Virus record (IMG/VR): IMGVR_UViG_3300002038_000006
Location: 23,480 to 87,479 of that record
DNA: 64,000 nt
Strand: one strand, 5' to 3'
DNA from: a virus
Positions 51,650 through 53,087 of this stretch are shown here, one piece after another. The notes under the pieces are model-generated. The model saw only the letters and a list, made by a program, of their open reading frames with translations. It did no database searches and was not told the origin of the DNA. Both the position numbers and the translations under genes were made by a program. How positions within the stretch are numbered: the first letter of the stretch is position 1; every line of letters starts with the position of its first letter.

Positions 51650-52636
51650 TTACCAGTTACTGTTACCAGTGCCACCTTGGTCTGCGCCAAATACATGAAT
51701 GTTACTTTGTGTTTCAGTAACCATACCTACAGATGAGGTAACTGCATTTAAGTCAACAGATAGTGAACTAAGGTCAGCATTGTCATTGCCAATGATTGGT
51801 GCAGTAAGACCATCCGCAAATGATGGAATTACGTAAGGTACAGGTACATCACCATCAACACTAATTTGAATACGTGTCTCACCTAGAATATCTACTTCCA
51901 TTTCAATACTAACGATGAAGTTCCAGTTGTTGGTAACATCAGGCATTACTATATTGATTAGGCGGTCAACAAACAAACGAGCGTAAGTATCTAATGGAAC
52001 ATCTTCTACGAATCCACGAGGGACATCAGTAAGACGAACATCAGGCACACCATTCAACGTTGCATTAGTTGCAGTGAACTTAACACGAGTTAACAGACAC
52101 TCCATTGCTAGAGGCGGAACTGTGTTAGATAAGATTGTAGACATAACAGCTGTTACATCAGAACCTTTCATGTGTTCACTATTGGTAGTGTGTTGTGTAG
52201 CTTGTTTAAGAGCTGGTTTCAATTCGAAGTGGGTAGTGTTAAATCCAGTAGATGGAGACATGTCACAAAGCATTCCGTAGGTAATGAAACCATCTTCGAA
52301 ATAGTTTGCTTGGTCATCCCAACTACGCAACAAGTTATCGTCATGAATACTAGCTTCACGAACCTTAGTTGTTGCTTCTTGGAAGATGTCAGCCATTGTA
52401 CCACCAGCCAAATGGTCAGCATTGTTTTGTGAAGTATGAAGAGCTTTCATAGACTTCGCAAGATACTCGTTATGGTTGGTATTACTACGGGCAGACTTAC
52501 GGGCACCTTTACTAATGTTTGCACGATAGTCAACTATATCCAAGTCATCTTGAGTGTAGAAACTTTCAGTTTGTAGAGTATTGAATACATCTTCAGGACG
52601 CATTACAACATTCTGCACCATGCACTTGTAAGTCAT
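51650..52636 (-). CDS. picA: PicA/Imp1 (phiKZ gp69-like) C-terminal fragment
   Basis: MRPEDVF, YVIPSFADGLTAPI; overlaps upstream fragment in +1 frame. Confidence 0.7.
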   Translation of the reverse strand: MTYKCMVQNVVMRPEDVFNTLQTESFYTQDDLDIVDYRANISKGARKSARSNTNHNEYLAKSMKALHTSQNNADHLAGGTMADIFQEATTKVREASIHDDNLLRSWDDQANYFEDGFITYGMLCDMSPSTGFNTTHFELKPALKQATQHTTNSEHMKGSDVTAVMSTILSNTVPPLAMECLLTRVKFTATNATLNGVPDVRLTDVPRGFVEDVPLDTYARLFVDRLINIVMPDVTNNWNFIVSIEMEVDILGETRIQISVDGDVPVPYVIPSFADGLTAPIIGNDNADLSSLSVDLNAVTSSVGMVTETQSNIHVFGADQGGTGNSNW

Positions 52637-53087
52637 TTACCACAATGTGATTAGACTCAAAGATTTGCCATTGGTTCTGCCCCATAAGACGAAGTACAAT
52701 AACGTTGTTGATATACATACGCATGTTAGGGTCAAGGCTACCACCCATACCTACGCCAACGTGGTCGGTATAGCCAATGATGATTTTACGAGTAGCCATG
52801 GCACCCACCATCATTTCCACTTCCATAAAGAAACGGTAACGACGTTCGCCCCAACCTTGCGCAATATTAATATCACGACCAGCTTCAGTAGACGGCATGA
52901 TGATGTTTGACGCAATACCTGCCACTGAGTTAGCAGAGATATTGTTACCATCTTGAGTAGCCGTCTTCAATAAGTTTACATTGTTGGTATCGTTGATGTA
53001 AGTGTTATACGGACGAGCAGCTTGTTGATGGTATTCGCCAGTCTCGATGAACATTAGTTTGGTTACATTAAATTGATGCATTTTCAT
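52593..53087 (-). CDS. picA: PicA/Imp1 (phiKZ gp69-like) N-terminal fragment
   Basis: LMFIETGEY...RPY, GWGERRYRFFMEV, GYTDH, LDPNM; between gp68-like and gp70-like genes. Confidence 0.7.
   Translation of the reverse strand: MKMHQFNVTKLMFIETGEYHQQAARPYNTYINDTNNVNLLKTATQDGNNISANSVAGIASNIIMPSTEAGRDINIAQGWGERRYRFFMEVEMMVGAMATRKIIIGYTDHVGVGMGGSLDPNMRMYINNVIVLRLMGQNQWQIFESNHIVVNDLQVHGAECCNAS

Follow-up and report, generated by a model that had tools for sequence, protein, structure and literature searches.

The picA/imp1 gene of an uncultured jumbo phage is broken into two overlapping open reading frames (ORFs) in its metagenome-assembled contig, and this split is probably an error of assembly or consensus calling, in which case the phage would encode a single 481-aa PicA. 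The DNA examined here is a 64,000-nt stretch (hereafter referred to as the window) that comprises bases 23480-87479 of an IMG/VR record (G000; 218,099 bp, direct terminal repeats), which is a metagenome-assembled genome rather than that of a sequenced isolate. The locus would be an ordinary picA/imp1 gene whose contig copy lacks 14 nt in a Gly-rich loop before the MRPEDVF motif, which leaves two overlapping ORFs. Because a second assembly of the same phage keeps the 14 nt missing from the contig, the real picA is very probably an ordinary single ORF. The gap belongs to a set of six or more contig-specific deletions, each 14-19 nt long, which are most likely technical errors.

The split picA locus and its genome context

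On the minus strand, a 164-aa ORF runs from 53087 to 52593 (C-terminal end ...HIVVNDLQVHGAECCNAS; stop TGA at 52595-52593), and a 328-aa ORF runs from 52636 to 51650 (N-terminal start MTYKCMVQNVVMRPEDVF...) with a TAA directly before it (52639-52637). The latter lies in the +1 frame relative to the former (53087-52636 = 451 = 3x150+1), overlaps it by 44 nt and has GTGGT as its sole, weak Shine-Dalgarno-like bases on the 5' side. Profile searches placed the 164-aa ORF at positions 3-161 of phrog_3141 (E 9e-33) and the 328-aa ORF at positions 171-493 of the same 510-position profile (E 2.5e-46), and since the two match consecutive parts of one profile, their pairing is not due to chance. The 164-aa ORF also matched PHIKZ069 (tblastn). 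These coordinates and profile matches agree with an earlier sequence-only reading of the locus, which had described a picA gene divided between two ORFs with the +1 offset, the 44-nt overlap and the weak GTGGT. The IMG gene call for the C-terminal part (P0001) starts at the ATG at 52621 and is 323 aa long, and exact-protein look-ups found no record of the exact 164-aa or 328-aa sequence.

The protein phiKZ gp69 has been named both PicA (PMC11087766) and Imp1 (bioRxiv 10.1101/2024.03.27.586873), and is an essential, shell-associated core protein of the Chimalliviridae that is needed for selective protein import (PMC11087766; bioRxiv 10.1101/2024.03.27.586873). Its localisation to the nuclear shell and its role in selective import are known only for phiKZ, PhiPA3 and 201phi2-1 (PMC11087766; bioRxiv 10.1101/2024.03.27.586873). 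Judged by homology, the locus studied here is an ordinary member of this PicA/Imp1 family (phiKZ gp69, phrog_3141), and it shows every sequence feature of the family save one: in place of a single uninterrupted ORF of about 475-560 aa, the window carries 164 + 328 aa. The statement that PicA is normally a one-ORF, essential core gene likewise held, given the phrog_3141 and PHIKZ069 matches, the GenBank coding sequences and the literature.

The surroundings of the gene fit this assignment. The upstream neighbour is a 522-aa homologue of phiKZ gp68 (E 7e-37; 53163..54731, minus strand; phrog_3209), the downstream neighbour is a 423-aa homologue of phiKZ gp70 (E 2e-38; 50321..51592, minus strand; phrog_3520), and a homologue of Imp6 (phiKZ gp67) lies at window positions 55981-56649 (G000 79460-80128, minus strand; E 2e-28), so that the gp67(Imp6)-gp68-gp69-gp70 neighbourhood is present in the order found in phiKZ. 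Elsewhere in the record, and also on the minus strand, we found a 636-aa open frame homologous to chimallin (phiKZ gp54; G000 91307-93121, E 2e-30) and a PhuZ-type tubulin (G000 103287-104276; PF00091 and TubZ_C_2). Together, the Imp6, chimallin and PhuZ-type tubulin homologues mark the genome as that of a nucleus-forming chimallivirus. Thus, the locus resembles characterised PicA/Imp1 genes (phiKZ gp69; PhiPA3 gp63; phrog_3141) in its collinear homology, in its gp67-gp70 gene order and in the chimallin and PhuZ homologues encoded by the same genome. It differs from phiKZ gp69 in that the window ORF is broken by a 14-nt deletion, and in that the restored protein is shorter (481 versus 557 aa), with most of the difference located in loops and at the C-terminal end.

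An intact picA in a second assembly and in relatives

Clustering at 90% identity groups the C-terminal ORF with one other protein (P0019), which led us to the assembly it comes from, the Logan assembly of SRA run SRR5078292. P0019 is a single ORF of 481 aa (locus L010, 10001-11446) and consists of residues 3-157 of the N-terminal ORF, the five residues GGFGN and residues 8-328 of the C-terminal ORF. Compared with the window, the 21,446 nt of L010 showed 0 mismatches and two gaps; both reflect bases deleted from the window, 14 nt of picA and 17 nt of a 204-aa gene. The picA deletion has its junction at 52615..52616 (minus strand), where L010 carries the sense-strand segment GTGGCTTCGGTAAC between ...CATGGTG and CAGAATG...; with GTGGCTTCGGTAAC put back, the window reads HG-GGFGN-QNVVMRPEDVF in one frame. 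The picA of the Logan assembly is therefore a single 481-aa ORF because the 14 nt missing from the window are kept there.

The remaining residues of the two window ORFs are accounted for by the same event. In the N-terminal fragment (164 aa; 52593..53087, minus strand), residues 3-157 equal residues 1-155 of P0019, and the last seven residues (AECCNAS) are out-of-frame read-through past the deletion; in the C-terminal fragment (328 aa from the ATG at 52636; 51650..52636, minus strand), residues 8-328 equal residues 161-481, and the first seven (MTYKCMV) are sequence of the N-terminal part read out of frame. The Logan picA is thus nucleotide-identical to its window counterpart over 21.4 kb save two short gaps, and its product holds all residues of both window ORFs save their out-of-frame tails, the difference being the extra 14 nt (the GGFGN loop) that yield one 481-aa ORF. 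Two further comparisons gave the same picture: P0019 matched phrog_3141 in one stretch (E 1.2e-83, profile search) and, over its residues 3-466, showed a collinear alignment with phiKZ gp69 that runs straight through the break (27% identity, E 5e-51). A DNA alignment with IMG/VR relatives also showed the window to be 14 nt short at the place where the homology changes frame. The break itself interrupts a short Gly-rich loop that is variable, is flanked by conserved blocks and closely precedes the invariant MRPEDVF motif.

These results bear directly on the sequencing indel that had been offered as one of three explanations for the split. A sequence error is the best supported of the three, and the single-base form in which it had been put is replaced by a 14-nt deletion (52616/52615). 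That reading had also held that it would fall if reads supported a correction restoring one ORF; in substance such a correction has been found, since the identical phage, assembled independently, has the 481-aa ORF.

We further surveyed picA in relatives and found that every full-length one, from 85% down to about 27% identity, is a single ORF. The closest separate relative (P0002; 85% identity) has one ORF of 477 aa, three IMG/VR relatives (L006-L008), 72-78% identical at the amino-acid level, each have the gene in one piece (483-485 aa), and the GenBank chimalliviruses phiKZ, Xoo-sp14, pEa_SNUABM_54 and pPa_SNUABM_DT01 each have one coding sequence of about 480-557 aa. In a collection of 5.8 billion proteins, further relatives (P0003-P0010, P0013, P0015-P0017) had one ORF each (474-495 aa), the sole 323-aa entry was the IMG call on the window's own contig, and the only shorter matches (263 and 358 aa) came from contigs of 1.5 and 2.5 kb. 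No split picA recurred in an independent genome among the full-length relatives in GenBank, IMG/VR and this protein collection. Against GenBank phages, the picA locus gave no match by megablast, and tblastn returned distant relatives only (<60% identity).

Two-piece and recoded readings of PicA

The survey also weighs on the proposals in which the split is functional, and a working two-piece or recoded PicA appears very unlikely. One such proposal is a naturally two-subunit PicA, in which an N-terminal beta-rich module of about 157 aa and a C-terminal part of about 321 aa would be made as separate polypeptides and assemble non-covalently; we regard it as highly improbable. The same applies to its translational side, in which the second part would arise by a coupled restart at one of three ATGs (52636, 52621, 52603) close to the TGA that ends the first ORF (52595-52593). 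In favour of such a protein, the break lies between conserved blocks, in a Gly-rich loop that is short and variable, and a low-confidence structural model puts it in coil right after the last strand of the putative N-terminal beta module. In addition, all three of these ATGs lie in frame inside the 44-nt overlap, and because the one at 52603-52601 (the M of MRPEDVF) is in frame and lies 8 nt before the stop of the N-terminal ORF, translation of both pieces would be conceivable were the deletion real. However, no relative at any distance has a split gene, the restart would have no real Shine-Dalgarno sequence but only the weak GTGGT, and an identical phage has the intact ORF, which means that the split lacks evolutionary persistence. 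Moreover, five sibling deletions strike unrelated genes of the same contig, and the split is thus not specific to picA. The idea of a natural two-subunit PicA is therefore not supported, in view of the survey of relatives, which revealed no shared split, and of the five sibling deletions elsewhere.

Programmed +1 ribosomal frameshifting in the overlap, which would yield full-length PicA, is scarcely credible. The C-terminal frame is indeed +1 relative to the N-terminal one, and the overlap would permit a shift. Nevertheless, the homology switches frame at ...CAT GGT G|CAG AAT..., where there is no slippery or hungry-codon/stop motif, and the junction has neither a re-pairing codon nor an adjacent stop, the stop of the N-terminal frame lying 20 nt further on. 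Because this stop comes after the MRPEDVF codons, shifting there in the manner of prfB would cost the protein the motif. The two-frame layout occurs in no relative, the nucleotide-identical phage included, and the 14-nt deletion alone fully accounts for the frame change. Recoding that tunes the full-length import factor, as had been suggested, thus found no support at a junction devoid of recoding signals and in a split that no relative has.

A two-piece PicA, if true, would mean that the import factor withstands interruption of the loop ahead of MRPEDVF, and a domain boundary would be marked there. With no relative sharing the split, no recoding signals at the junction and at least five more frame-breaking deletions in unrelated genes of the same contig, the split cannot be taken to define such a boundary. 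For the intact protein, AlphaFold2 supplied with an alignment of 15 sequences returned a mean pLDDT of 48.9 and a pTM of 0.36, scores too poor for domains to be defined from the model.

Sibling deletions across the contig

To screen the contig for further frame changes, we compared every ORF of G001, a complete IMG/VR genome related to G000, with G000 by tblastn and also ran the reciprocal search. Homology changed frame in six genes of G000, five of them at short deletions and the sixth a fibre gene, and the reciprocal screen flagged no frame change in G001. Local alignments at the flagged deletion sites confirmed short deletions of 14-19 nt. We then compared Logan SRR5078292 loci (L010, L022, L025, L026 and L029; 68,723 nt in total) with G000 and found 0 mismatches and exactly six gaps (14, 17, 14, 17, 19 and 17 nt), all of which are frame-breaking deletions in the contig. 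Six or more such deletions (14-19 nt each) are peculiar to the contig; each strikes a different gene, and these genes are intact in the Logan assembly.

Besides picA, two of the affected genes lie in the window. A gene of 204 aa in the Logan assembly, with no assigned family (49658..50327, minus strand), sits 2.4 kb downstream of the picA break and is cut into ORFs of 60 aa + 181 aa by a 17-nt deletion at about 50163 (L010 12934-12950). A conserved phrog_2767 gene (28404..29661, minus strand; 423 aa in Logan) is cut into ORFs of 183 aa + 245 aa by a 14-nt deletion at about 29112 (L022 4606-4619), which is the one deletion, with 0 mismatches, in the 12,956 nt of L022. Elsewhere in G000, a 124-aa gene has a 17-nt deletion at 100585 and is intact in L026 (10,990 nt, 0 mismatches, one 17-nt deletion), and a gene for a 2141-aa tail/M23-peptidase protein (phrog_3201) and a 163-aa gene have deletions of 17 nt at 168665 and 19 nt at 178346, respectively, both genes being intact in L025 (17,932 nt, 0 mismatches, these two deletions). 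The 5,399 nt of L029 are identical to the contig. Microhomology at the six deletions amounts to 0-2 nt only, and all six lengths are not multiples of 3, which has a chance probability of about 0.09 and is not significant with six events.

This pattern resembles the frameshift artefacts and pseudo-split genes of metagenome-assembled viral genomes, in that neighbouring ORFs match successive stretches of a single family, only one record shows the split and the same contig has several breaks. It differs from the usual artefacts of this kind in consisting of 14-19-nt deletions with almost no microhomology rather than of 1-2-nt homopolymer errors. Alternatively, the deletions could be real mutations in a defective or minority phage variant, carried for example by co-infection with intact phage, which we consider unlikely; the two assemblers would then have followed different paths, one that of the variant and one that of the intact phage, and picA in the variant would be a recent pseudogene, a scenario to which we likewise give only a small chance. 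The deleted junctions are, after all, present in the deposited contig, the IMG gene call P0001 spans the picA junction, De Bruijn assemblers normally require reads that contain a junction, and the little microhomology at the deletions does not match artefacts of overlap collapse. On the other hand, a mutation spectrum of six independent deletions, all frame-breaking, and not one substitution in 68.7 kb is unnatural, essential core genes are among those struck, and a search with one pattern for the two junction forms, deleted and intact, matched neither in any other JGI metagenome or IMG/VR contig. Six simultaneous knock-outs, zero point differences and the loss of essential core genes thus make a poor fit to a viable natural genome or to a normal spectrum of mutation.

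From the comparison of assemblies we infer that the cause is most likely technical rather than real mutation, that the contig was presumably built from the reads of SRR5078292, and that reads with the deletions are presumably absent. The attribution to an assembly or consensus error remains tempered by the fact that we can name no assembler step to which deletions of 14-19 nt with 0-2 nt of microhomology could be traced.

The biological weight of the split is small, since picA is very probably a normal single ORF in the phage. For users of the 218-kb IMG/VR contig, the false split genes that arise from its short deletions, six or more in number, are a quality-control warning: any split gene, frameshift or pseudogene read from G000 needs a prior comparison with the Logan assembly of SRR5078292. 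Were the deletions real, the record would represent a multiply defective genome, and there would still be no evidence for a two-subunit import factor.

Some minor features of the lesions were also recorded. The deleted segments are somewhat richer in GC (0.41-0.63) than the genome (0.41). ACCG/CGGT occurs in or beside five of the six deleted segments and is absent from the sixth; as a shared deletion motif it was dropped, being a post-hoc pattern that is missing at one segment and probably a coincidence. The sixth frame change of the screen concerns a Thr/Ser-rich fibre gene (G000 3873-8368), which is 1464 aa in G001 and here changes frame at about 6185-6431, giving ORFs of 1098 aa + 422 aa. 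The Logan contig stops at G000 6361, within the repeats of the fibre gene, and the frame change there is possibly a seventh lesion, a mis-assembly of the repeats or a real difference.
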